The notes: a model not told the origin generated them from the letters alone. DNA of 46,786 nucleotides from Campylobacterales bacterium (GCA_027081145.1 JALWLB010000098.1:1-46786); one strand, 5' to 3'; counted from the first letter of the stretch, positions 17,115-43,272 are shown. Translations and numbers: made by a program.

Positions 17115-17477
17115 ATGAATGATAAAAAAATTATAAAATACAAAAGAACAAAATATATAAGAGAGTCTGAAAGATTTATCAACAAAAGTGTAAACTTTAT
17201 CTCAAAAGATGATATAACCAAAGATGAGTTTGATCTGTTTATACAAAAGATTTATACCTCTTTTTTAGAGGTAGAAAAAGTAGCACTCTATAGTGAATAC
17301 TTTAATCTACTAGAATCGACTATCCAAAAAATAGCCAACTTAACACAAGAGAAGCTCCAAATTGATGAAATTAAAAAAGTTATCATGTACGAAGCAAATC
17401 AGTTAAGAAAGCTAAAAAGAAAAAAGAGCTTTTCAAGAAAAAGATTTAACTTAGATTATACAAACGAAACATTTTAA
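17115..17477 (+). CDS. Hypothetical basic protein (120 aa from the ATG at 17115; the ORF is open from 17079)
   Basis: ORF only, with no recognisable domain. TGCTATAAT (17099-17107) lies 7 nt upstream of the ATG at 17115. Confidence 0.35.
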   Translation: MNDKKIIKYKRTKYIRESERFINKSVNFISKDDITKDEFDLFIQKIYTSFLEVEKVALYSEYFNLLESTIQKIANLTQEKLQIDEIKKVIMYEANQLRKLKRKKSFSRKRFNLDYTNETF

Positions 17478-17509
17478 AATGTTTTGATGTATAATCCAAA
17501 TTTATTATA

Positions 17510-17830
17510 CTAATTTTGCACCAAAACCCAATCCAACTCTTTTGAATTTTTTATAAATGTAAATGTATATCTTCTGTTTTTACTATCAATTATGCAATTT
17601 GATTTTAATGGATAATAGTCTGTATCATTGAGAGATACACTAATAGAATCCGATTTAAAAACTGCATCCGAATCAAGATCAGTTCCAACTCCCGGTAATT
17701 TACCCTCAATTTGCAAATCCATACAAGTCTCAACCAAAGAGTTAAATTGGTTTGGATCAATCTTCTCTTCAGCCATTAAAAAAGAGTTCACTCCTACAAG
17801 TAATCCTACTAAAAATAGTTTTTTATACAT
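17510..17830 (-). CDS. Small secreted hypothetical protein (signal peptide)
   Basis: MYKKLFLVGLLVGVNSFLMA signal sequence, with AGGA Shine-Dalgarno ~10 nt upstream of the ATG at 17830. Confidence 0.5.
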   Translation of the reverse strand: MYKKLFLVGLLVGVNSFLMAEEKIDPNQFNSLVETCMDLQIEGKLPGVGTDLDSDAVFKSDSISVSLNDTDYYPLKSNCIIDSKNRRYTFTFIKNSKELDWVLVQN

Positions 17831-17901
17831 GATATTTTTTCCTATAAATTTAATAAAAAACCTATTGTACAAAATAATATTTAAATGTTGTTGAAATAGT
17901 T

Positions 17902-19026
17902 TTACTTAAACCAACTTTTTACCTTATCCATTACACTTTCAAACTTACTCTCATTTGGAGAACTCTCATATCCAAATGAAGCTTGAAGCCTCTCTAAAAG
18001 CTCTTTTTGCTCATCGGTCAATTTTTTTGGATAGACTATTTTTATTTGAACTATCATATCACCTTTTTGACCAGAGTGCACATTACTAACACCCTCACCT
18101 CTTAAGATAAATTGCTCTTTATCCTTAACTCCTGCTGGAATTTTGATCTCCTGCTCAGAATTTAGTGTAGGAACTTTAACTTCTCCTCCAAGTACAGCTT
18201 TGGTAAAAAATATAGGAACCTCTATATAGATGTTATCCCCATCTCTTATAAAGTGATCATCCTCTTTTACATTTATAAAAAGATATAAATCCCCTCTTTG
18301 TCCATATTGGCTTATATTTCCTTTTTTGCTAACTCTAATTCTATTACCGCTATCAACTCCAGCTGGGATTTCAACTTTTGTACTAGATCTACTTTTGATA
18401 TAACCTCGTGCACTACATTTAGGGCATCTATTTTTAGATATTTTACCCTCCCCTTTACAGACACTACAAGTTTGTGCAAAGGTCATAAAACCTTGTCTAT
18501 AATAGACCTGCCCTTTTCCATCACACTCATAACAGACTTGTAATTTTTTATCCCTATCACCTGTACCATCACAAGCTTCACAAGGCTCTAAAAACTCAAA
18601 CTTTATCTCTTTTTGACACCCAAATATAGCTTCATTAAATTCAAGTACTATTTCACTCTCAACATCTAATGGATACTTTTGATTATTTCTTGAATCTCTT
18701 TGAGAAAAGCCTCCAAATCCACCAAAACCTCTACCAAAAACAGATTCAAAGATTGAGCTTAAATCACTCATATCAGAAAAACCACTAAAACCTTGATTTT
18801 CAAGCCCAGCTTTTCCATATCTATCATATATCTCTCTTTTTTGAGGATCGCTCAAAACTTGATAGGCTTCATTAACAAGTTTAAACTTCTCTTCAGCCTC
18901 TTTTTGGCCTTGATTTCTATCAGGATGATATTTTAGTGCTAACTTTCTATACGCTTTTTTAATCTCAGCACTATTTGCATCTCTTTGTATCTCTAAAATT
19001 TCGTAATAATCAAGCTCCATAGACAT
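17902..19026 (-). CDS. dnaJ: Molecular chaperone DnaJ
   Basis: J domain (DYYEILEI...[13 protein letters not shown]), G/F region and four CxxCxGxG zinc-finger repeats. Confidence 0.95.
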
Positions 19027-19133
19027 TTAAACACACCCCTCTCTTAATATGGCGAAAATATTATCTTCTTTTTGCTAAAAAAATATTAAATTTGTCGATA
19101 TTACACCAAAGTAAGTTCTTTTAAGGAAAACAA

Positions 19134-19937
19134 ATGGGTACACATGAATTGCAAATAGTAACTAATGAGGCTTTAAAAGAGAGTAGTAAATTTGATGTTG
19201 TAACACCATCTTTGTATGAAGATATATTTTACTCCAAAGCTGAAGATAAAAATGTAGCAATTGAAGAGCTAAATATAAATAGCGAGGCTAAAATTTTGGA
19301 AAAAATTTTAAAAATTCAAGATGAGACTAAAAAAAATACAATGGCACTAAAAGATAATATAGATCTTGCAAAAGTTGCTATAGAAAATCAAGATAACGAA
19401 GCTTTAAATAAAATAAGTAGCGATGTTGAAGAGCTTAGACAAAGAGTTTTATTGCTTGAGACTCAAATATATTTTGATGACTTGACAAAAGTATATAATA
19501 GAAAATGGCTACATGAGAAGTGTTTAGTGGATGATAAATTTATAACCGATGGAGTATTGGCATTTGTTGATGTAAACTATTTTAAACAGATAAATGATAC
19601 TTATGGTCATGTTACTGGAGATAAAGTGCTATTTATGGTGGCAAATTGGATAAATAAGATAGAAAATGCCGATATCTTAAGATATGGTGGTGATGAATTT
19701 ATACTAATTACAAAAGATACCGATGTATCAAAAGTTGAAAAGTTTTTTAGAAATTTAAATGACTCTTTGGCAAAAAAAAGTTTAAAATACAAAGATAAAC
19801 TCTTTAAAGTTAGTATCTCTGTGGGTATTCAAAGCTTTAAAAAAGATGATGAATTTAAAAAAATCCTTGAAATAGCTGATCAAAAAATGTATGATCATAA
19901 AATGGAGATCAAAAAAAGGTGTTTAGCTCCTGTTTAG
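19134..19937 (+). CDS. GGDEF-domain diguanylate cyclase with an N-terminal coiled-coil region
   Basis: DDLTKVYNRKWL...VDVNYFKQINDTYGHVTGD...RYGGDEF. No TM or sensor domain is evident. Confidence 0.8.
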   Translation: MGTHELQIVTNEALKESSKFDVVTPSLYEDIFYSKAEDKNVAIEELNINSEAKILEKILKIQDETKKNTMALKDNIDLAKVAIENQDNEALNKISSDVEELRQRVLLLETQIYFDDLTKVYNRKWLHEKCLVDDKFITDGVLAFVDVNYFKQINDTYGHVTGDKVLFMVANWINKIENADILRYGGDEFILITKDTDVSKVEKFFRNLNDSLAKKSLKYKDKLFKVSISVGIQSFKKDDEFKKILEIADQKMYDHKMEIKKRCLAPV

Positions 19938-20748
19938 TGCAGTAAATATCTTTTGAAATCTCTTTTTTTAACTCATCTAAATTGGAAAATTTTCTATTTT
20001 CTCTTAAAAATTTGACAAATTCAATCTCTAGTGACTCTATCTTGATCTCTTTTTTTATATCAATTATATGTGTCTCTATGCTAAAACTGTTATCTACACT
20101 CAATCTATGACCTATAAAAGTAACCGATGGGAGCTTTTTATCATTTATAGTGGCTAATGTAGCATAAACACCACTTTTTGGAATCAAAAATTTTTCAACT
20201 TTTATATTTAGTGTTGGATAAAGACTCTTTTTTCCAATGCCCAATCCTTTTATTACATCTCCTTGAATCAAATAGTTTCTACCTAAAAGTCTGTTTGCCT
20301 TTTGGATTTTTCCACTTTTTATCAACTCTTTTATAACTCTTGAGTGAATTGCGATATCATCTAACTTGATCTGCTCTATAACTTCAACTTTATGTTTAAA
20401 AAGCTTTTTGAGCGTTGTTACATCACCCATTCTATCCTTGCCAAATTTAAAATCATACCCAACAACAATCTTTTTTAAATTTTTAAATCTCTTTAGTAAA
20501 AAATCGACAAACTCTTTTGAAGATAGATCTTTGATCTTTTGATAATCTATAAAACATACACCGGTATTTATATATCTATTTCTTTGGGTACTTGGAGTTA
20601 AAGAGGCTCTTTTTTTATCAATAACCAATACCAATGAGTTTGAACTAAGTTTTGAGATTAGGTGTTGATGAGCTTTATGAACACCATCAAATCCACCAAT
20701 TGCAATAGAATCAATTTGATCATTTTCTAAAGTGGTAAAATATCTCAA
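19909..20748 (-). CDS. ribF: Bifunctional riboflavin kinase / FMN adenylyltransferase RibF (TTG start proposed)
   Basis: IAIGGFDGVHKAHQ motif and a C-terminal riboflavin kinase domain. The TTG at 20748 is preceded by AAGAGGGA. The longest ORF (to 20826) would overlap tlyA by 107 nt. Confidence 0.75.
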   Translation of the reverse strand: MRYFTTLENDQIDSIAIGGFDGVHKAHQHLISKLSSNSLVLVIDKKRASLTPSTQRNRYINTGVCFIDYQKIKDLSSKEFVDFLLKRFKNLKKIVVGYDFKFGKDRMGDVTTLKKLFKHKVEVIEQIKLDDIAIHSRVIKELIKSGKIQKANRLLGRNYLIQGDVIKGLGIGKKSLYPTLNIKVEKFLIPKSGVYATLATINDKKLPSVTFIGHRLSVDNSFSIETHIIDIKKEIKIESLEIEFVKFLRENRKFSNLDELKKEISKDIYCTKQELNTFF

Positions 20749-21424
20749 GATTTCCCTCTTTGCCTTTAGGAAAAGACTCTGTTTTTTGTAAAAGTTGCCA
20801 CGAAAACTCTCTACATGATATCTCAAATTTACTTAGTGCCAATTCAATTGACTCTTTTTGTTTAACAACTCCTCTTTTATCTCTTTTTACATCTTTTCCC
20901 ACCTCAAATTGAGGCTTAAACAAGATAACAATATCAAAACTTGCCAATCTATCAATATCTCTTAAAACATGCTCAAGTGAGATAAATGATAGATCACAAG
21001 TAACTACATGAAAATACTTCTCACTTTTAAAATTTCGTATATCGCACTCTTCATATGAGACAACTTTTGGTGAAGATTTTATTTTTGGATGGAGCTGATT
21101 TTTACCAACATCAACCCCAATAACCTCTTTTGCTCCAAATTCAAGCAACACCTCTATAAATCCTCCACTACTACTACCTATATCTAAACATATTTTATTT
21201 TTTATGTCTATATGATATGAACTTAGAAAATTTTTTAGTTTTTTACCAGCTCTACTGACATATTGATTTGACTCTTTTATGCAAACACTCTGAGAAGTGA
21301 TTTGAAAGGAGGGCTTTGTGACAATCTTGCCATCGACCAATACTTTTTTACTTTTTATTAATTCTTGTGCTTTATTTCTACTATCACAATATTTTTTTAA
21401 AAAAATGTAACTATCTAACCTCAT
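20720..21424 (-). CDS. tlyA: TlyA family rRNA (cytidine-2'-O)-methyltransferase / hemolysin A
   Basis: S4 domain (MRLDSYI...SRNKAQELIKSKKVLVDGK) plus an FtsJ-type SAM-binding motif (CLDIGSSSGGF). Confidence 0.85.
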   Translation of the reverse strand: MRLDSYIFLKKYCDSRNKAQELIKSKKVLVDGKIVTKPSFQITSQSVCIKESNQYVSRAGKKLKNFLSSYHIDIKNKICLDIGSSSGGFIEVLLEFGAKEVIGVDVGKNQLHPKIKSSPKVVSYEECDIRNFKSEKYFHVVTCDLSFISLEHVLRDIDRLASFDIVILFKPQFEVGKDVKRDKRGVVKQKESIELALSKFEISCREFSWQLLQKTESFPKGKEGNLEIFYHFRK

Positions 21425-34137: not shown

Positions 34138-36714
34138 ATGCAAAATATATTTGAAAAATTAACACACGCTACAAGAGAAGCAATTGAGAGTGCTATTAGC
34201 CTAGCACTTCACAATCAAAATCAAGAAGCCACTCCACTACATTTGCTATGGGGAGAGTTGGCAAATAGTAACTCTATTTTAAATCAAGCATTAAATAAGA
34301 TGAATGCTTCTAAAGAGGCAATTGCACTAGAGGTAAAAAGCAGAGCTGAAAAATTACCAAAAGTCTCATCAGTTACAAAAGAGAATATTAAAATTTCAAA
34401 CGATTTAGCCCAAAGTTTGCAAAAAGCTGAAGCTTTAATGGTAAAAAATGGGGACTCTTTTATAGCTATTGATACTTGGTTTATAGCAAATTTGGATAAT
34501 CCATCAATTAAAGAGCCATTATCAAAATTTATAGATTTAAGCGAACTTAAAAAGACATTTGAAGCTATGAGAGGTGGTAGAAAGATTGACTCTAGTACTG
34601 CTGAAGAGAAGTTAGAAGCTTTAGAAAAATATGGAATAAATTTAACTCAAAAAGCAATTGATGGTGAACTTGATCCTGTGATTGGCAGAGATGAAGAGAT
34701 ACAAAGGATGATGCAAATATTAATTAGAAAAACTAAAAATAACCCTATTTTATTAGGAGAACCAGGAGTTGGTAAAACTGCTCTAGCTGAAGGTTTAGCT
34801 CAAAGAATAGCAAACAAAGAGGTTCCTTTAAGCCTTCAAAATAAAAAATTAATAACTCTTGATATGAGTGCTTTAATTGCTGGAGCAAAATATAGAGGAG
34901 AGTTTGAAGATAGATTAAAAGCTGTTATAGATGAAGTCAAACAAGATGGAAATATTATACTTTTTATAGATGAGATACATACAATTGTTGGAGCTGGAGC
35001 TAGTGAAGGTAGTATGGATGCTGCAAATATATTAAAACCAGCCCTTGCAAGAGGTGAACTTCATACCATAGGAGCAACTACTCTAAAAGAGTATAGAAAA
35101 TATTTTGAAAAAGATGCAGCCTTGCAAAGAAGGTTTCAACCAATTACGGTTAATGAACCAACTATAAATGAAGCTCTACAAATCATGAGAGGTATCAAAG
35201 AGAAACTAGAAGCTCACCATAATGTTCAAATTTTAGATAGTGCTCTAGTAGCTGCTGTTAAACTTAGTAGCAGATATATAACCGATAGATTTTTACCAGA
35301 TAAATCTATAGATCTTATAGACGAAGCTGCTGCTGAACTTAAGATGCAAATAGAATCAGAACCGTTTGAGCTTAGTAGAACAAAAAGAGAAATTGAGAGT
35401 TTATTGGTTGAAAAAGAGGCACTTTTGATGGAAAAATCTAGCAAAAATGAGGAGAGATTAAAAGAGATAGAAAAAGAGATAGCAAACCTTGAAGAGAAAA
35501 AAGTAGCCCTAGAGAGTCAATTTGAAAATGAAAAAAATGTCTTTAAAAATATTGCTGATATCAAACAAAAGATTGATGAGTTAAAAAGGGAGGCTGAACT
35601 TGCTAAAAGAGGTGGCGATTTTAATAAAGCTGCAGAGATAGAGTATGGTGAAATTCCTAAACTTCAAAATAGGGAAAAAGAGTTAAATGAGCAGTGGCAA
35701 AAGATGCAAGAAGGAGGAGTACTTTTAAAAAATAGTGTTGATGATGAAATGATAGCTTCCATCGTAAGTAAATGGACATCAATCCCTGTAACTAAAATGC
35801 TAACAAGTGAAAAAGAGAGAATTTTAGGGGTCGAAGATGAATTAAAAAGAAGAGTCGTAGGTCAAGATAGTGCTCTTAAAGCGATCGCAAGAGCAATTAA
35901 GAGAAACAAAGCTGGTCTTAGTGATCAAAATAGACCTATAGGATCTTTTATGTTTTTAGGACCAACTGGAGTTGGTAAAACTGAAAGTGCCAAAGCTTTA
36001 GCTTCGTTTTTATTTGATAGCGATAAATCATTAATTAGATTTGATATGAGTGAATATATGGAAAAACACGCAGTTAGTCGTTTAGTTGGTGCACCTCCTG
36101 GATATGTTGGATATGAAGAGGGAGGTCAATTAACCGAAGCTGTAAAAAGAAAACCATATAGTGTAGTACTATTTGATGAGATAGAAAAGGCTCATCCAGA
36201 TGTTTTTAATATACTTTTACAAGTATTAGATGATGGAAGGCTTACCGATAACAAAGGTGTAACGATCGATTTTAAAAATACAATTATTATCTTAACTTCA
36301 AATATAGCAAGTGATAAGATTATGGAATTTCGCGATCCAGAAGATAGAGAAAAAGCGGTTAAAGATGAATTAAAACTTCACTTTAAGCCTGAATTTTTAA
36401 ATAGGCTTGATGATATTATAATCTTTAATCCACTAGAGATCGAACAGATTACAAAAATAGTTGATATACTATTAAAAAGTATTGAAGATAAATTAAAAGA
36501 TAGATCGATTGAGCTTGAATTAACTCAAAGTGCAAAAGAGTATATAGCAAAAGAGGGATTTGATCCAGTCTATGGTGCAAGACCACTAAAAAGAGCACTC
36601 TATGAAGAGATAGAGGATAGATTGGCTGAGCTTATACTATCAGATAAGCTACATGATAATCAAAAAATTGTCTTTGATTTACAAAATAATCAATTAACTT
36701 ATACAATCACTTAA
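34138..36714 (+). CDS. clpB: ATP-dependent chaperone/disaggregase ClpB
   Basis: Clp N domain, two AAA+ modules (GEPGVGKTA; GPTGVGKTE) and a long middle coiled coil. 858 aa. Confidence 0.95.
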
Positions 36715-36739
36715 AAATTGCCCAATTTATGGGCAATTT
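36715..36739. terminator. Bidirectional rho-independent terminator between the convergent clpB and cyclase genes
   Basis: Perfect 10-bp stem AAATTGCCCA / TGGGCAATTT with a 5-nt loop. It is flanked by an A-run on the left and a T-run on the right. Confidence 0.65.
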
Positions 36740-36746
36740 TATATCA

Positions 36747-38675
36747 CTATCTTCGTAAAACTTGATAGATAGTAATTGACTCTTTTTTACCTTTTACACT
36801 TACTTGACCTATCTCTTTGATGTTATAATTTAATTTTAATCTATCTTTTGTCTGTTTGGTTATCAAAATTTCAGCTTTATACTCTTTACAAAGTCCCTCA
36901 ACTCTTGAAGCTATATTGACACTATCTCCTATGATAGTATAATCACTCCTATCTCTGCTTCCCATCTCACCAACAACAGCTTCACCACTATGAATACCTA
37001 TACCAATATAAATAGGGGGTAAATTTTCTTTAGCCAACTCTTTGTTTAATCTATCCAACGCCTCTAACTGTTCAAGTGCAGAAGTTAAAGCTTTATCAGC
37101 ATGATTTTCAACCTCCAATGGTGCATTCCAATAAGCCATTATCGCATCACCTATATACTTATCGATTGTTCCTTGATTTTTTATAATTATTTCACTCATT
37201 GGTGACATATAGCGATTTAAATACTCAATCAGATCATGTGCACTACCAAAACCTTCCGAAATTGAGGTAAAGTTTCTTACATCACTAAAAAATATACTAA
37301 TCTCTCTCTCACTAGCACTAAAGTCTATTTGTGATTTTATAAGAGTTTGTGCAACTGCTGGAGAAACTTTTTTAGAAAATTTACTTAAAATTTGCTCTTT
37401 TTGTTTCGATTCTTGAAATAGTTTGATTAAAAAGATAATAATCATAACACTAATTACACTCAAAAGTGGATAGATAAAACTAATAACCACTCCATAATCA
37501 AACATCAATTTATAAAATCCAACCAACATCAAAAAAATAAATCCAACCGATAAAACCAAAGAAAGAGCAATTGAAGAGCCTATTAAAATAGCTCCAGCAA
37601 TGATTGAGCTAATCAAAATATTTAAAATATTTAACCCTTCTATATTTGATGGCTTTTGCAGAAAGTTTTGATTGATAATATTATCGATCGCATTTGCATG
37701 AATTTCAACTCCAGGAATAGTCTCATCAAATGGAGTAGATCTCAAATCCAAAAGCCCAGCCGCTGATGTACCTATGAGAACTATTTTACCCTCTAATGCA
37801 CTCTTTTTAACTCTTTTTTCATACACATCCAGTGCTGAAATGTATCTATAACTTTTTTTAGCTCCTGCAAAATTTACAAATAATCTTCCATACTTATCTG
37901 TAGGGATTTTAATCTCACCCATCTCAATATTTAAAACCCCAAACTCATCATAATTTATATTAACCATTCCTACACCAAGTGCTAATCGCAACATCTCAAG
38001 TGACAAAGAGGGATATATCATACCATCTAGCGAAAATAGCATTGGAACATACCTAACAACACCATCACTATCTGGAAACATATTAAAACTTCCACTTGAG
38101 TATGCACTATCTTGTAAAATTTTTATATTTGATGTAACACCTTTTGCTTTTGGTAAAAAATCTTCATCTGGCTTGTTTTTTTGTATAAAAATAGCATTAA
38201 CTGATGGGGTATAATTTGAAAAATTTTGCTCCATATTTAACACATATCCCAAAACTGCTGGTGCATTTGCTATAGATTTAGCAAAGATTTCATCATAATC
38301 TTTAGCATTTTTAATCTCTATATTTAACTCTTTTGCAATCTTTTTTGGAGAGCTTCCATCACTTTCAGCAAAAACCATATCAAATCCAACAATTCCAACC
38401 TCATAATCTCTTAAATTATCCAATAAAGTTGCAACCTTATCTCGTCTCCAAGGCCATCTACCAAGCCTGTTTAAAGATCTCTCATCAATATCAACTATAA
38501 CTATATCTTTACTAGCTACTACTTCACCTCTTAGATTAAAAAACATATCTATAAAATTATTATCAAATTTTTTGATACTAGATAAATTTAGAGTATAAAG
38601 CACTATAAATATAAAAGCTACAATTAGTGATATATATAGATTAAGATATTTAATTTTATGCAACTTACACTCCAT
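36747..38675 (-). CDS. CHASE2-sensor class III adenylate/guanylate cyclase
   Basis: An N-terminal TM helix and a ~300-aa periplasmic CHASE2-like region (VIVDIDERSLNRLGRWPWRRD). Then a TM bundle and a cyclase homology domain (FFSDVRNFTSISE...GDAIMAYWNAP...GIHSGEAVVGEMGS...IGDSVNIASRVEG). Confidence 0.85.
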   Translation of the reverse strand: MECKLHKIKYLNLYISLIVAFIFIVLYTLNLSSIKKFDNNFIDMFFNLRGEVVASKDIVIVDIDERSLNRLGRWPWRRDKVATLLDNLRDYEVGIVGFDMVFAESDGSSPKKIAKELNIEIKNAKDYDEIFAKSIANAPAVLGYVLNMEQNFSNYTPSVNAIFIQKNKPDEDFLPKAKGVTSNIKILQDSAYSSGSFNMFPDSDGVVRYVPMLFSLDGMIYPSLSLEMLRLALGVGMVNINYDEFGVLNIEMGEIKIPTDKYGRLFVNFAGAKKSYRYISALDVYEKRVKKSALEGKIVLIGTSAAGLLDLRSTPFDETIPGVEIHANAIDNIINQNFLQKPSNIEGLNILNILISSIIAGAILIGSSIALSLVLSVGFIFLMLVGFYKLMFDYGVVISFIYPLLSVISVMIIIFLIKLFQESKQKEQILSKFSKKVSPAVAQTLIKSQIDFSASEREISIFFSDVRNFTSISEGFGSAHDLIEYLNRYMSPMSEIIIKNQGTIDKYIGDAIMAYWNAPLEVENHADKALTSALEQLEALDRLNKELAKENLPPIYIGIGIHSGEAVVGEMGSRDRSDYTIIGDSVNIASRVEGLCKEYKAEILITKQTKDRLKLNYNIKEIGQVSVKGKKESITIYQVLRR

Positions 38676-38739
38676 TTGACAACATAAACCAATTTTTGGG
38701 TCGATTTATTAATTAAGTACAAGATATATCGGAGATAGA

Positions 38740-40044
38740 ATGAAAAGCTTAATAATGCTATTTTTTATATTAACAACCTTTTTATATGCAAATATAGCAA
38801 AAGTTACTGCAATTAGTGGTGAAGCGATAGTCATAAGAGATAAAAATGAAATTTCAATCAAAAAAAATTTTGAAATTTATGAAAAAGATATCATAAAAAC
38901 TATGAAAAATTCTAAATTACAACTTGTTTTTAAAGATAAAACTATGATCTCTTTGGGTCAAAAAAGTACATTTGAGATAGAAAAATACCTCTTTTCAAAC
39001 AAAAAGCCAGTTGCAAAGTTTAAAATTTCAAAAGGAATTTTCAAATCGATCACTGGAAAAATTGGAAAAATTGCTCCTCAAAATTTTAAACTAAAAACTC
39101 AAAATGCAACTATAGGTATAAGAGGAACTACAATCATTGCAGAAGTTTCAAAAAACTCAGACACAATTATCTGTAGCTCTGGTCAAATAGTAGTATCAAC
39201 TCCAAAAGGTGAAGTTATAGTAAACAAAGGTGAAAAAACCGTCGCACAAAAATTAAAACCTCCTACAAAAGCGATAAAAGTTACTAAAAAAAGTATCCAA
39301 CAATTAGAAAAAAAAGTTGATGCTAAAGCTGAACAATCAACTTCAAAAGAGGTTGAAAAAAAAGCCAAAACCAAGAAAGAAAAAGAAAAAACTGAAAAAA
39401 AGAAGAACGAAAACGAAAAAAATGAAAAGAACACAAATGAAAAAACAACAAAAACTACAGAAAAAAAGAGTACAAAAGTAGAAAAAACTGTTACAAAAAA
39501 AATTGCCAAAACAATCACTCCACTACCACCAATTATTAAAAAAGAGTTACCAAAATTTGATAATCAAATCAAAGATAGATGGGGTGATTGGAATAAAGAG
39601 AAGTTTTTTAAAAATGAAGCAAACAAACTTCTACCAAAAAAACCAAATCCAACAAAAGAGATGCTAAAAAGCTTAGAAGAGTTGCGATTAAGAGCTGGTC
39701 AAATCAAACCAACTTATGAAGGAAAAGTTTCTGGTTTTGTAAATCAAACATATAAAATATCAGATCAAAACAATTTTATAAAATTAAATTTTGATTTAGG
39801 CTCTGGAAAAGTTGATGGAAGTATGAAATTTTACGCAAATAAAGAGCAGTGGTTTGCCAATATTAAAGATGGCACAATTGATCAAAGAGGGAAGTTTGAT
39901 TTTAACTTGCAAGGAGCAAATTCACAAGGTTTAGGAGATGGCATTTTGAGTGGAAAAAAATTAGAAAATGCAAATGGATCTTTTATGTTAAAAAATAGTA
40001 AAAACCAACAAGCGTTTGGTACATTTAGTGCTAAAAAGAAGTAA
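38740..40044 (+). CDS. Secreted FecR-domain protein with a K/E-rich linker and a C-terminal TbpB-handle-like beta-barrel domain
   Basis: Signal peptide. FecR-like N-terminus (AISGEAIVIRDKNE...EKDIIKT..NSKLQLVFKDKTMISLGQKSTFEI...IGIRGT). Lys/Glu low-complexity region at aa ~185-250. The C-terminus (TYEGKVSGF...IKLNFDLGSGKVDGSM...) resembles transferrin-binding-protein-type barrels. Confidence 0.6.
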   Translation: MKSLIMLFFILTTFLYANIAKVTAISGEAIVIRDKNEISIKKNFEIYEKDIIKTMKNSKLQLVFKDKTMISLGQKSTFEIEKYLFSNKKPVAKFKISKGIFKSITGKIGKIAPQNFKLKTQNATIGIRGTTIIAEVSKNSDTIICSSGQIVVSTPKGEVIVNKGEKTVAQKLKPPTKAIKVTKKSIQQLEKKVDAKAEQSTSKEVEKKAKTKKEKEKTEKKKNENEKNEKNTNEKTTKTTEKKSTKVEKTVTKKIAKTITPLPPIIKKELPKFDNQIKDRWGDWNKEKFFKNEANKLLPKKPNPTKEMLKSLEELRLRAGQIKPTYEGKVSGFVNQTYKISDQNNFIKLNFDLGSGKVDGSMKFYANKEQWFANIKDGTIDQRGKFDFNLQGANSQGLGDGILSGKKLENANGSFMLKNSKNQQAFGTFSAKKK

Positions 40045-40046
40045 TC

Positions 40047-42818
40047 ATGAAAAATTTACAACTATTTATACTCATACTCTTTTTATCTTTTATGATAAAT
40101 GGATGTGGATCAAATGAAAAAAAGAGACAAAATGGTACTGAATTAACGATAAAAACAACTGCATCTAACACTAAACAAGAGTGGCAAGCAACTCCAGTAC
40201 TAAAAACTTGGGAAGAAGCCAAAGAGTATTGTGCCAATTTAGATTTAAATAATCAAACAGATTGGAGATTGCCAAGTAGTGAAGATTTTTTTACTCTCTT
40301 AGATGGCAACAGATCAATAGATGAGTATTTTCCAAAAAGCTCTCTTATAAAAGAGTTTTACACAAATAACAAAACCGATTTCGATGAAAATCAGATATGG
40401 AAACTATCGGCTTGGAGTAACACTCTTTCTTATACACATAAAAGTAAAAAATTGGGTGTTAGGTGTGTAAGAGGTGAAAAAAAACAGACACCAGAGCTTA
40501 TATGGAAGCCACATAATGATCAAACATTCACATGGAATGAAGCAAATAGTTATTGCAAAAATCAAAATGCAAGAGTTCCAACAATTTTAGAGCTTATCAA
40601 GCTACATGATATCAACCAAACAGATAATTTTATCCCATTTTGGTCATCAACTCCACTACCTACAAATCATAACCAATATCTAAATATTAATTATAAAAAA
40701 GGGATCTATTTTAGCAATAAAGAGACAAAAAACTATGTAAAATGTGTCAAAAATAAGATCATACCAACTATATCGGTTTATGATACAAATTTTTCAGAAG
40801 ATGGTAATTCAAACTTTATGGTACTAAATATAAATCCAGCACCAACACAAGATCTACAAATAACTTACACTCTAACTAGTGGTAGTGCAAAAAAGGGAGT
40901 TGATTTTGATGAGACAAATCAAACACTTACAATAAAAAAAGAGACTCCATTAACTATTATTAATATACCAATCATAAATGATCACTTTCCAGAAGATACT
41001 GAAAGCTTTTATATCACTCTAAGCAATCCAATCAATGCTAAATTAAAAAATATAACTGCAAAAATAACCATTTTAGATGATGATTCACAAAATAGTGCTT
41101 TTATAACTAAATGGAAAACAACATCTGCTAATGAGTCAATAACTATACCAACAAAAGCTGGATTTTATTATAACTATAGTGTTGATTGGGGTGATGGCAA
41201 TCAAACAACAAACCACACTGGCAATGCTACACACACTTATACAAATCCAGGAAAATATACCATAAAAATATTTGGTATTTTTCCATCTATAGACTTTACA
41301 AACTCAAACAATCAAAATCAAATCTTATCCATAAATCAATGGGGAAGCGTAGGTTGGCAAAATTTGGATAACGCTTTTTATAACTGTATTAATTTAGAAT
41401 TAAACGCTACAGATACACTAAATTTTCAAGAACAAAATATCTCAATAGATAAAATATTTTTTAATACCTCTGTATCAAACGAGAGCATCTCTTCATGGAA
41501 TGTTAGTAACAAAATCATGCCTCAATCTATTCATAAAACAGTAGATGAAGATCATAATATATCGATAGATTTAAGAAGAGGCTATGATGATAATCTAACA
41601 TATCATGTAGAGACAAATACAACAAATGGATCTTTAAATATAGATAATTTACCAACTATCATCTATACTCCAAATGAAAATTTTAACGGTAGTGATAGTT
41701 TTATATTTAGAGTAAGTGATGATAATAACTTCTCAGATACAGCTACAGTTACTATCACCATAAATCCTATAAACGATCCTCCAAATGTTAATATAAATAT
41801 CATTGGAGCTTGGGAAGTTGGAGAAAGTATTATATTTGAATCAAATAGTAGTGATGTTGATGGGGATTTTTTAACTTATCAATGGGAAGAAAATGGAGTA
41901 TCTATATCAACTAATGATCAAAACTTTACAAAAACTTATACAGATGAGGGAAATTATACAATTACACTCATAGTTAGTGATCCATATATATCTATTGTAA
42001 AAAGTATAGATATAAACATCACAAATCCACCTTTTAAATTACCAAAAACAGGTCAAATCAATACATATCATAACTTTGATGATGGATACTATCAAAAAGG
42101 AAGCCAAAGAGTATTTACAAAATTTAACAATATGGTAAAAGATAAAAACTTAAACCTTTTTTGGCAAGATGATAATAATACAATTATTAAAAAAACATTT
42201 ATTCAAGCGTATGATTATTGTGATAATTTAACTCTAAATGCCAAAAATGATTGGAGATTGCCAACTAAGCATGAACTATTTTTTCTAGCAAAAAAAGATA
42301 CAAATGAAACTTTAGAAGATATATTTTCATATAAAAAGTATGATCAATATTGGAGCTCTGGTATGATAGATACTGCTACCTCAATAATTACTATTGACTT
42401 TTCAAATGCAACAGAGCAAATAGAGTCTATTGATGAAGATTACTATGTTAGATGTGTTAGAAGTGATATTGACTTTTATCCAAATATTTCATCATCAAAT
42501 GGTATCATTACAGATCATACACTAAATCTTATGTGGTATGATAGCTCTGAGTTTTTAAACTATAGTGATGCTATAAATAGATGTGAAGATTTGAATATTT
42601 CAAACTATAATGATTGGAGAGTTCCAAATATAAATGAGTTATATACTATACAACAAGATTTTTTTCCTAACATTGCTCATGTTCAATACTGGTCATCTAC
42701 TGCACAATATGACACTAACGGTTCAAAAATTTATACATTTGATTTTAGTCTAAATCTTATAGAGTTAAAAAATAGTATAGATTATGCAAAAACAGTATGT
42801 GTTAGAGATATTAAATAG
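40047..42818 (+). CDS. Mosaic surface lipoprotein: lipobox, 2x DUF1566 (Lcl-C-like), Calx-beta, DUF285/PKD-like, cadherin-like Ig, PKD, 2x DUF1566
   Basis: MKNLQLFILILFLSFMINGC lipobox. DUF1566 hallmarks (W.EA..YC..L......DWRLP...EL....VRCVR) occur four times. Calx-beta (VDFD...LTI...IPIINDHFPEDTESF). WGDG...HTYTNPGKYTI. VSDDNNFSDTATVTITINPINDPP. The gene starts 2 nt after the FecR-like stop. Confidence 0.7.
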   Translation: MKNLQLFILILFLSFMINGCGSNEKKRQNGTELTIKTTASNTKQEWQATPVLKTWEEAKEYCANLDLNNQTDWRLPSSEDFFTLLDGNRSIDEYFPKSSLIKEFYTNNKTDFDENQIWKLSAWSNTLSYTHKSKKLGVRCVRGEKKQTPELIWKPHNDQTFTWNEANSYCKNQNARVPTILELIKLHDINQTDNFIPFWSSTPLPTNHNQYLNINYKKGIYFSNKETKNYVKCVKNKIIPTISVYDTNFSEDGNSNFMVLNINPAPTQDLQITYTLTSGSAKKGVDFDETNQTLTIKKETPLTIINIPIINDHFPEDTESFYITLSNPINAKLKNITAKITILDDDSQNSAFITKWKTTSANESITIPTKAGFYYNYSVDWGDGNQTTNHTGNATHTYTNPGKYTIKIFGIFPSIDFTNSNNQNQILSINQWGSVGWQNLDNAFYNCINLELNATDTLNFQEQNISIDKIFFNTSVSNESISSWNVSNKIMPQSIHKTVDEDHNISIDLRRGYDDNLTYHVETNTTNGSLNIDNLPTIIYTPNENFNGSDSFIFRVSDDNNFSDTATVTITINPINDPPNVNINIIGAWEVGESIIFESNSSDVDGDFLTYQWEENGVSISTNDQNFTKTYTDEGNYTITLIVSDPYISIVKSIDINITNPPFKLPKTGQINTYHNFDDGYYQKGSQRVFTKFNNMVKDKNLNLFWQDDNNTIIKKTFIQAYDYCDNLTLNAKNDWRLPTKHELFFLAKKDTNETLEDIFSYKKYDQYWSSGMIDTATSIITIDFSNATEQIESIDEDYYVRCVRSDIDFYPNISSSNGIITDHTLNLMWYDSSEFLNYSDAINRCEDLNISNYNDWRVPNINELYTIQQDFFPNIAHVQYWSSTAQYDTNGSKIYTFDFSLNLIELKNSIDYAKTVCVRDIK

Positions 42819-43272
42819 CTATAAAATAGCCAATAAGCTGGAAAACTCCAGCACTACAAATTCCAGCAATAACACCAGCTAACAGATCATCTCCCATAAC
42901 TCCCAAACCACCTTTAACATCTCTATCAATTTTTCCTATATATGATGGCTTGAGAATATCAAAAATTCTAAAAAATATTATTGATAAAACTATTTGTAAA
43001 ATTGTTCCACCACTTAAAGATAGTGCTATCCAAATACCAGCAACCTCATCTATAACAATCTCTTTAGAGTCATGAGTTTTGGTTATTTTTTCATACTTAT
43101 CTATCTCTTTTATAGCTATAACAGTTATTAAAATAGAGAGTAAAAATAGTGTACTCTGAGGTAAAATAGAGAGTAGCAAAACTCCCACTATAGCTCCTGC
43201 AAGTGTGCCAACTGTTCCAGGAGCAAATGGAGATAAACCTGAGTAAAAAAATGTTAAAAAAATTTTTTGCAT
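42811..43272 (-). CDS. pgpA: Phosphatidylglycerophosphatase A
   Basis: FFYSGLSPFAPGTVGTLAG...IDEVAGIW...FRIFDILKP are PgpA signatures. 153 aa. Confidence 0.85.
   Translation of the reverse strand: MQKIFLTFFYSGLSPFAPGTVGTLAGAIVGVLLLSILPQSTLFLLSILITVIAIKEIDKYEKITKTHDSKEIVIDEVAGIWIALSLSGGTILQIVLSIIFFRIFDILKPSYIGKIDRDVKGGLGVMGDDLLAGVIAGICSAGVFQLIGYFIAI

Follow-up and report, generated by a model that had tools for sequence, protein, structure and literature searches.

Positions 36,747 to 42,818 of a 46,786-nucleotide stretch of DNA from a Campylobacterales bacterium (GCA_027081145.1 JALWLB010000098.1:1-46786; the whole stretch is referred to below as the window) hold three genes: a nucleotide cyclase with a CHASE2 sensor domain on the minus strand and, diverging from it, a secreted FecR-domain protein with a beta-barrel tail and a giant lipoprotein on the plus strand. 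We favor, with reasonable rather than high confidence, the reading that these genes form the central block of a conserved Campylobacterota module that would convey a signal from the cell envelope to cyclic AMP (cAMP). An earlier note, made from the same DNA, had described the locus, and its open reading frame (ORF) positions were reproduced exactly, as were the divergent spacer of 64 bp, the 2 nt that separate the two plus-strand cistrons and the overlapping, convergent pgpA gene; its domain calls also hold in Pfam (CHASE2 cyclase, FecR, and a lipoprotein with DUF1566, Calx-beta, Ig and PKD domains). The features are as follows.

36714-36740, between the convergent clpB and cyclase genes: hairpin of 11 bp with a run of A on one side and of T on the other, found by folding.
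36747-38675, minus strand: receptor adenylate cyclase of 642 amino acids (aa), with a membrane helix, CHASE2, hydrophobic membrane segments and a class IIIb catalytic domain.
36762-37310, minus strand: class IIIb catalytic domain (Pfam Guanylate_cyc, 2e-25).
37599-38609, minus strand: periplasmic CHASE2 domain, residues 23-359 (Pfam PF05226, 7e-64).
38676-38739: divergent intergenic region of 64 bp between the cyclase gene (minus) and the FecR gene (plus).
38740-40044, plus strand: secreted FecR-barrel protein of 434 aa, with a signal peptide that lacks a lipobox cysteine.
38791-39249, plus strand: FecR/PupR-like beta domain (Pfam FecR, 6e-12).
About 39271-39639, plus strand: linker rich in Lys, Glu and Thr, first helical and then disordered.
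39697-40041, plus strand: TbpB/NHBA-like 8-strand barrel (profile, homologues, AlphaFold and Foldseek).
40047-42818, plus strand: lipoprotein of 923 aa, with lipobox MINGC and Cys20 at 40104-40106.
About 40164-40766, plus strand: pair of Lcl_C domains (Pfam).
40797-41084, plus strand: Calx-beta domain (Pfam).
Between the Calx-beta and Big_9/cadherin-like domains, plus strand: stretch without domain assignment.
41529-41987, plus strand: Big_9/cadherin-like and PKD domains (Pfam).
42132-42815, plus strand: second pair of Lcl_C domains (Pfam).
42811-43272, convergent: pgpA, overlapping the end of the lipoprotein gene by 8 nt.

The cyclase has hydrophobic stretches at approximately residues 13-30 and 345-420, so that CHASE2 lies between membrane segments and upstream of the output domain, which is the layout of a CHASE2 receptor. 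The solved structures that align best with the catalytic domain are those of the class IIIb adenylate cyclases CyaB (3r5g) and CyaC (1wc0). In this alignment FSDVRNFT, DKYIGDA and DYTIIGDSVNIASR match both enzymes column for column, and both metal-binding Asp residues are kept, along with the Lys, Thr, Asn and Arg. We take the Lys and Thr to define the substrate, for which Glu or Cys would mean GTP, and the Asn and Arg to serve in the transition state. The earlier note had given the output as cAMP or cGMP; the conserved residues point to cAMP alone and rule out cGMP, and the protein is, as judged from its sequence, a CHASE2-gated class IIIb adenylate cyclase with cAMP as its predicted product. 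It is the sole class III cyclase of the 1.85-Mb genome, which also encodes two small CRP-type cyclic nucleotide-binding proteins, and orthologues were found in 30 of 41 related genomes.

The 434-aa protein is the product of the only FecR-domain gene in the genome. An AlphaFold model of this protein (mean predicted local distance difference test score of 81.7) contains two well-folded domains, with a beta domain at residues 18-170, helices at 183-223, disorder at 226-300 and eight strands at 325-433. In Foldseek searches the N-terminal domain matches the C-terminal cell-surface signaling domain of PupR (6ovk) and BDI_1681 (4m0n) at about 1e-5, and the C-terminal tail matches NHBA, the TbpB C-lobe and fHbp. 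Pfam applied to the C-terminal 142 residues alone returned nothing useful. Many of 306 homologues carry PF01298 (TbpB_B_D) after the FecR domain, and a profile of 70 homologues run against the PDB matched the C-terminal barrel of NHBA/GNA2132 at 4e-7 and, weakly, hemophilin at 0.003. The tail had been called TbpB-like from the outset, and the PF01298 domains of the homologues, the family profile and the 8-strand model bear this out. A Sec signal peptide followed by a C-terminal 8-strand TbpB-type barrel is the build of type 11 secretion cargo, and the protein is predicted to be the cargo or partner of the Slam-like outer-membrane protein described below. A plain periplasmic partner, as had been proposed, is therefore unlikely. 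The runs of seven to eight A in the linker region are AAA codons for Lys.

Two faint resemblances were noted for residues 19-83 of the same protein (38794-38988), one to the LapA-type retention module NF033682 (E 9e-4, under the cut-off) and one to a fragment of the Marinomonas ice-binding adhesin (5ix9; E 0.31); neither is strong enough to serve as evidence. Retention modules of the LapA type block a pore in the outer membrane from its periplasmic face.

Cyclase neighborhoods were mapped at 30 loci from the 41 related genomes, with approximately 20 kb around each; ORFs and domain labels in the relatives came from our own script with phmmer, jackhmmer and a small database, by which weak domains may have been missed. 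Two further genes recur. The first encodes a protein of approximately 780 aa with a class-II cAMP phosphodiesterase/metallo-beta-lactamase domain followed by GAF and HD_5 domains (PDE-GAF-HD), and lies directly downstream of the cyclase gene in nearly all mapped loci. The second encodes an outer-membrane protein of approximately 490 aa with a SPOR domain, TPR repeats that include weak TPR_Slam matches, and a C-terminal region whose last residue is aromatic. The phosphodiesterase is present at 22 of the 30 loci, the FecR protein at 17 and the Slam-like outer-membrane protein at 15. In the three closest genera (L021-L023) the phosphodiesterase and cyclase genes diverge from the genes for the FecR protein, the lipoprotein and the outer-membrane protein, and the order phosphodiesterase, cyclase, FecR, lipoprotein, outer-membrane protein is also seen in genomes G020, G011 and G004.

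The outer-membrane protein is probably a member of the Slam/type 11 secretion (SlipAM) family. Pfam SlipAM (PF04575) gives few matches over the 41 relatives, and these fall on the outer-membrane genes of the module. Two proteins of genome G028 exceed the curated cut-off (43 and 34 bits), as does one of G040 (33 bits) that adjoins a CHASE2 cyclase, and weaker matches were obtained for the module genes in G031, G013 and G012. The family profile A2 matches the two G028 SlipAM proteins at 1e-38 and 8e-34, and a FecR-barrel protein of 670-691 aa comes directly after each of these. For the orthologue P0123, AlphaFold predicts a domain like SPOR, helices of the TPR type and then 14 long strands. A profile of the outer-membrane protein matched only TPR proteins in the PDB, and Foldseek returned generic 14-16-strand porins and the BcsC, PelB and PgaA exporters; no Slam structure was found in the PDB.

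In the genome of the window the cyclase, the FecR protein, the Slam-like protein and the phosphodiesterase are each encoded by a single gene, and the last two lie on other contigs:

Contig C54, within 17404-20980, minus strand: PDE-GAF-HD gene of 775 aa, diverging across 67 bp from the SPOR-TPR-barrel gene.
Contig C54, within 17404-20980, and the end of contig C167 (32037-32228): SPOR-TPR-barrel gene, cut by the contig end, with its last 64 codons on C167.

All four families of the cAMP gene cluster published by Mo et al. (PMC9239204) are thus present, split between the contig of the window (C98; cyclase and FecR genes) and C54/C167 (phosphodiesterase and outer-membrane genes). The divergent pair on C54 is exactly what remains once the three-gene block is lifted out of the order seen in relatives, and the window therefore probably holds one half of the module after relocation. 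The earlier note had put the locus forward as the best candidate in the window for an undescribed multi-component system. The three genes do not form a new system that is complete in itself, and are the central block of a five-gene module with a published four-gene core. Relocation of this block would also explain why the locus looks insulated. An empty site, with clpB next to pgpA, was sought in eight relatives, in which the two genes lie mostly on different contigs.

Upstream of the cyclase end, the hairpin at approximately 36714-36740 has a folding energy of -14 kcal/mol (z = -4.9), and none of 200 shuffles folded as well; a consensus terminator scan of the region did not list it. It is probably a bidirectional terminator. 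Of the strong bidirectional terminator proposed earlier, the stable hairpin stands, and the terminator role is a deduction from a structure that the consensus scan missed. Within the 64-bp intergenic region, 8 nt separate a GGAG from the ATG of the FecR gene. Promoter-like matches in this region do not exceed those in shuffles, and no promoter is claimed; by eye no CRP-type palindrome was seen in the gap.

Linkage between the cyclase and FecR-barrel genes is far beyond chance. Among 401 Campylobacterota genomes drawn evenly across the phylum, 52 hold both, 8 the cyclase only, 9 the FecR protein only and 332 neither (Fisher 4e-47; the statistics from this sample are given without correction for shared ancestry). 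All 37 genomes with the Slam-like protein also hold the FecR protein (Fisher 2e-36) and 36 of the 37 hold the cyclase (Fisher 5e-34). The cyclase and FecR genes lie within approximately 6 kb of one another in 35 of the 52 genomes that have both. A second collection was made with the FecR-protein profile and comprises 80 loci from Campylobacterales, Arcobacteraceae, Sulfurospirillum, Sulfurimonas and Helicobacteraceae, plus one from Hydrogenovibrio. A Slam-like gene is adjacent and on the same strand at 64 of these, a CHASE2 cyclase is nearby at 31 and the phosphodiesterase at 28. Since about half of the FecR/Slam-like pairs are without a nearby cyclase, the pair is not tied to cAMP only. The earlier note had held the three genes of the window to be functionally linked, for which it looked to gene co-occurrence and neighborhood; both sets of counts agree with it, and strongly so for the cyclase and the FecR protein.

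Several other arrangements of these protein families were encountered. Small FecR-only proteins of approximately 140-175 aa, with no barrel, adjoin CHASE2 proteins, some of which have no cyclase domain. This is a second, simpler FecR-CHASE2 pairing within Campylobacterota, found at the following positions.

G006, contig C74, 6422-8802: FecR-only/CHASE2 pair.
G244, contig C1, 175722-178041: FecR-only/CHASE2 pair.
G083, contig C8, 128504-130928: FecR-only/CHASE2 pair.
G353, contig C1, 799481-801883: FecR-only/CHASE2 pair.

In Arcobacteraceae (L086:9373-12849, L095 and L113) the Slam-like protein is fused to an N-terminal extension of approximately 700 aa, which brings it to 1,149-1,158 aa in total and places SPOR at 328-368 and TPR at 731-819; these fusions directly follow a FecR-barrel gene and have no cyclase nearby. 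Three loci of Campylobacteraceae and Sulfurospirillum metagenome-assembled genomes (L073:2346-10973, L074 and L081) encode proteins of 2,772-2,876 aa that start with the same FecR domain and have no further Pfam match across approximately 2,700 residues; they may represent giant proteins of the cell surface that are headed by FecR. In the gammaproteobacterium Hydrogenovibrio sp. JE_KL2 (L119), two tandem Slam-like/FecR-barrel pairs are followed by a CHASE2 cyclase, and the module therefore also occurs outside Campylobacterota.

Taken as a module, these proteins suggest the following route. The FecR-barrel protein would be exported by Sec, and the Slam-like protein would then move its barrel end to or through the outer membrane. 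Its FecR domain would contact the periplasmic CHASE2 domain and alter the output of the cyclase; we assign the contact to the FecR domain because this is the part that always travels with CHASE2. The resulting cAMP would be read by the two CRP-like proteins, and the PDE-GAF-HD enzyme would remove it and reset the signal. The earlier note had seen in the locus the input branch of a trans-envelope signaling system with a cyclic nucleotide as its output. The gene linkage, the TbpB-like tail and the cyclic nucleotide output of that proposal stand. What does not is a self-contained locus, with the lipoprotein as a core part and the FecR protein in a plain periplasmic role.

It is important to point out what weighs against this route. 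The interactions between FecR and CHASE2, between the barrel and the Slam-like protein, and between the lipoprotein and the sensor are all ones that we infer from the folds and the surroundings of the genes. The type 11 secretion cargo known so far undergoes complete export and serves to capture nutrients or to adhere, and it is not obvious how such cargo could touch a sensor in the inner membrane. In the genome of the window the cargo-like gene is not adjacent to the outer-membrane gene, which is broken by a contig end, and the fragment of the latter on C167 falls under the Pfam SlipAM cut-off (18.7 bits against 22, E 0.003). Approximately half of the FecR/Slam-like pairs lack a cyclase within 8 kb, the co-occurrence tests leave shared ancestry uncorrected, and Lcl_C genes are numerous in the family, with up to 23 domain matches per genome.

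A tentative and rather doubtful extension of the same scheme makes a signaling device of the Slam-like translocon, with the FecR-barrel protein held across the outer membrane in a threaded topology like that of RcsF or LapA. The TbpB-type barrel would then lie outside, the Lys/Glu-rich linker would run through the envelope, and the FecR domain would sit in the periplasm and touch CHASE2, so that binding at the surface would set cAMP directly. In the family of the window this might occur by way of contact through the lectin/Ig lipoprotein. If true, such a threaded relay would provide CHASE2 with its long-sought input and type 11 secretion with a second function.

The place of the giant lipoprotein in the module requires separate consideration. 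Its Lcl_C/DUF1566 domain (PF07603) occurs in four stretches (2e-54), there are weak NCBIfam matches to Lsa25, and the lipobox Cys is kept in all of the orthologues from five other genera. At 12 of the 19 cyclase loci within the family, in six genera, an Ig/Lcl_C giant lipoprotein is adjacent, compared to none of the 11 loci outside the family. Its position is variable: it may follow the FecR gene, diverge directly from the cyclase or lie on the far side of the phosphodiesterase. The lipoprotein could conceivably be an unrelated adhesin, one of many Lcl_C genes, that lies downstream by chance of a cyclase and a FecR-barrel protein that are themselves still linked. The genome of the window does have 18 Lcl_C domain matches on at least six contigs, and the lipoprotein is missing from the module in genera g2 and g8 of the family and at all loci outside it, where the module would work without it. 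However, the chance rate of adjacency is approximately 0.1 or less per locus, and even at a generous 0.15 the binomial probability of the in-family count is 2e-6. The recurrence spans differing gene orders, just 2 nt separate the FecR and lipoprotein genes in the window, and different giant secreted proteins fill the same slot in other lineages. We therefore regard a chance neighbor as unlikely. The giant lipoprotein is a real, lineage-specific accessory and not a core part of the module, as the earlier note had made it. With its lectin-like Lcl_C, Calx-beta and Ig modules it would be a family-specific surface accessory that captures the ligand, polymer or surface being sensed, or alternatively it may be co-regulated with the sensor.

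Giant proteins of other kinds follow the FecR, Slam-like and cyclase genes in Sulfurimonas: an RCC1 protein of 2,193 aa, an FG-GAP and cadherin protein of 1,591 aa with a lipobox, and a laminin-G protein of 1,518 aa (L118:9641-16222; L120:4720-9495; L125:10422-14978). This suggests that the module has a variable slot for a giant surface protein. The Calx-beta domain of the lipoprotein and the stretch of approximately 150 aa that follows it (together 40767-41528) have two paralogous copies with 42-45% identity on another contig of the same genome (C56:12544-15909), indicating that the lipoprotein core was built from modules used more than once in this genome.

More damaging to a signal relay would be a reading in which the FecR-barrel and Slam-like proteins form an ordinary type 11 secretion pair for metal or haem capture or for adhesion, and the cyclase regulates the pair or is merely co-regulated with it. 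Proven type 11 secretion cargo consists entirely of adhesins, haemophores or metal binders (PMC12282271), the FecR-protein profile has its weak match to hemophilin, and the many pairs that lack a nearby cyclase fit such a role. Nevertheless, the modules that we examined showed neither a TonB-dependent receptor nor TonB or haem genes, and the N-terminal domain is of the signaling type found in PupR and at the C-terminus of anti-sigma factors, not a handle for haem or transferrin. FecR proteins also pair with CHASE2 sensors when there is no barrel, both in the LysM-FecR proteins of Burkholderia (PMC5192318) and in the small FecR-only genes described above, and only one of the 37 Slam-like genomes is without the cyclase. 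We consider this reading improbable, and the envelope-to-cAMP module is preferred to it. Classical FecR/ECF (extracytoplasmic function) cell-surface signaling, with the 434-aa protein as an anti-sigma factor, would account for the Pfam FecR domain and the PupR-like fold, but is scarcely credible given that the protein has a cleavable signal peptide followed at once by the FecR domain with neither a cytoplasmic anti-sigma domain nor a membrane helix, that the locus holds no sigma gene and no TonB-dependent transducer, and that Sigma70_r4_2 has just two matches genome-wide, in ORFs of 626 and 235 aa, with no evident ECF sigma factor. The anatomy of the protein contradicts it, in agreement with the earlier note, which had expected a cyclic nucleotide in place of an ECF sigma factor.

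CHASE2 is a sensor domain that occurs very widely among bacteria. A conserved partner set composed of a FecR domain, a TbpB-type barrel and a Slam-like pore points to a concrete route by which CHASE2 could receive input from the cell surface, and the module would widen the roles of type 11 secretion past nutrient capture and adhesion. Given that the cyclase is the only source of cAMP in the genome and that its partners are single copy, whatever the module senses would control all cAMP signaling in these free-living Campylobacterales. The giant surface proteins that recur beside the module hint that a surface or a polymer is sensed.

Parts of this arrangement can be compared with known systems. 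Lcl_C/DUF1566 proteins such as Legionella Lcl (PMC11162425) and Leptospira Lsa25 are adhesins that bind host glycosaminoglycans or matrix. The lipoprotein of the window resembles them in its four Lcl_C modules and its lipobox, and by analogy may bind a ligand. It differs in being a mosaic, with Calx-beta, cadherin-like and PKD domains between the Lcl_C pairs and no collagen repeat, and in sharing an operon with a signaling protein.

The FecR-CHASE2 pairing itself has a parallel in a Burkholderia/Pseudomonas operon (PA4035/PA4036), in which a secreted LysM-FecR protein (COG4254) is encoded beside a CHASE2 histidine kinase (PMC5192318). In both cases a secreted FecR-domain protein lies beside a CHASE2 sensor and a second domain places that protein in the envelope. 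In the operon, however, the anchor is LysM, which holds to peptidoglycan, the signal leaves through a histidine kinase and response regulator, and there is no Slam-like protein. The only experimentally supported relay from the envelope to CHASE2 is that of Sinorhizobium meliloti, where the outer-membrane barrel protein NsrA is needed for an external, protein-like signal to raise cAMP by way of the inner-membrane CHASE2 cyclases CyaK, CyaD1 and CyaD2 (PMC7529298, PMC13001267), and deletion of CHASE2 turns CyaD1 constitutive (PMC5498481). The likeness to the module is one of functional analogy: NsrA is one protein of approximately 1200 aa with its barrel at 600-1200, whereas the module has separate outer-membrane and FecR-barrel proteins.

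Members of the type 11 secretion (SlipAM PF04575) family include Slam1/2, NilB, HrpB and HsmA, with TbpB, fHbp, hemophilin and NHBA-like proteins as cargo. Like these, the outer-membrane protein of the module has periplasmic TPR repeats and, in the orthologue model, a 14-strand barrel, with homologues that pass the SlipAM cut-off, and its partner combines a Sec signal with an N-terminal "effector" that varies, a linker that is disordered or helical and an 8-strand barrel at the C-terminus, with the two genes adjacent at 64 of the 80 loci. Unlike them, the N-terminal domain of the cargo is of the FecR signaling type and not a ligand handle, the outer-membrane protein has an extra SPOR domain, and the genes that accompany the pair are those of a cyclase and a phosphodiesterase and not of TonB-dependent uptake; secretion in the module is a prediction. 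Surveys of type 11 cargo define it by the C-terminal 8-strand barrel, list FecR solely as a regulatory neighbor and never as cargo, and mention neither cyclases nor Campylobacterota.

The closest precedent is the work of Mo et al., who reported in 2022 that all Campylobacterota adenylate cyclases carry CHASE2, described the four-gene cAMP cluster and, citing the NsrA work, proposed that sensor parts of the ECF type act on transmembrane cAMP enzymes (PMC9239204). The module described here shares with that cluster its four protein families, its phylum and the signaling proposal, and is found at a comparable level, in 15% of genomes here and 21% of species there. It differs in the genome of the window in being arranged as two divergent pairs on two contigs and in the addition of the giant Lcl_C/Ig lipoprotein. 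Furthermore, that study did not recognize a Slam/type 11 barrel in the TPR protein or a cargo barrel of the TbpB type in the tail of the FecR protein. What is already published is therefore the cluster and a general view of its function, whereas the probable identity of the two barrels as a type 11 secretion pore and its cargo, and the lipoprotein as an addition to the module, appear to be new.

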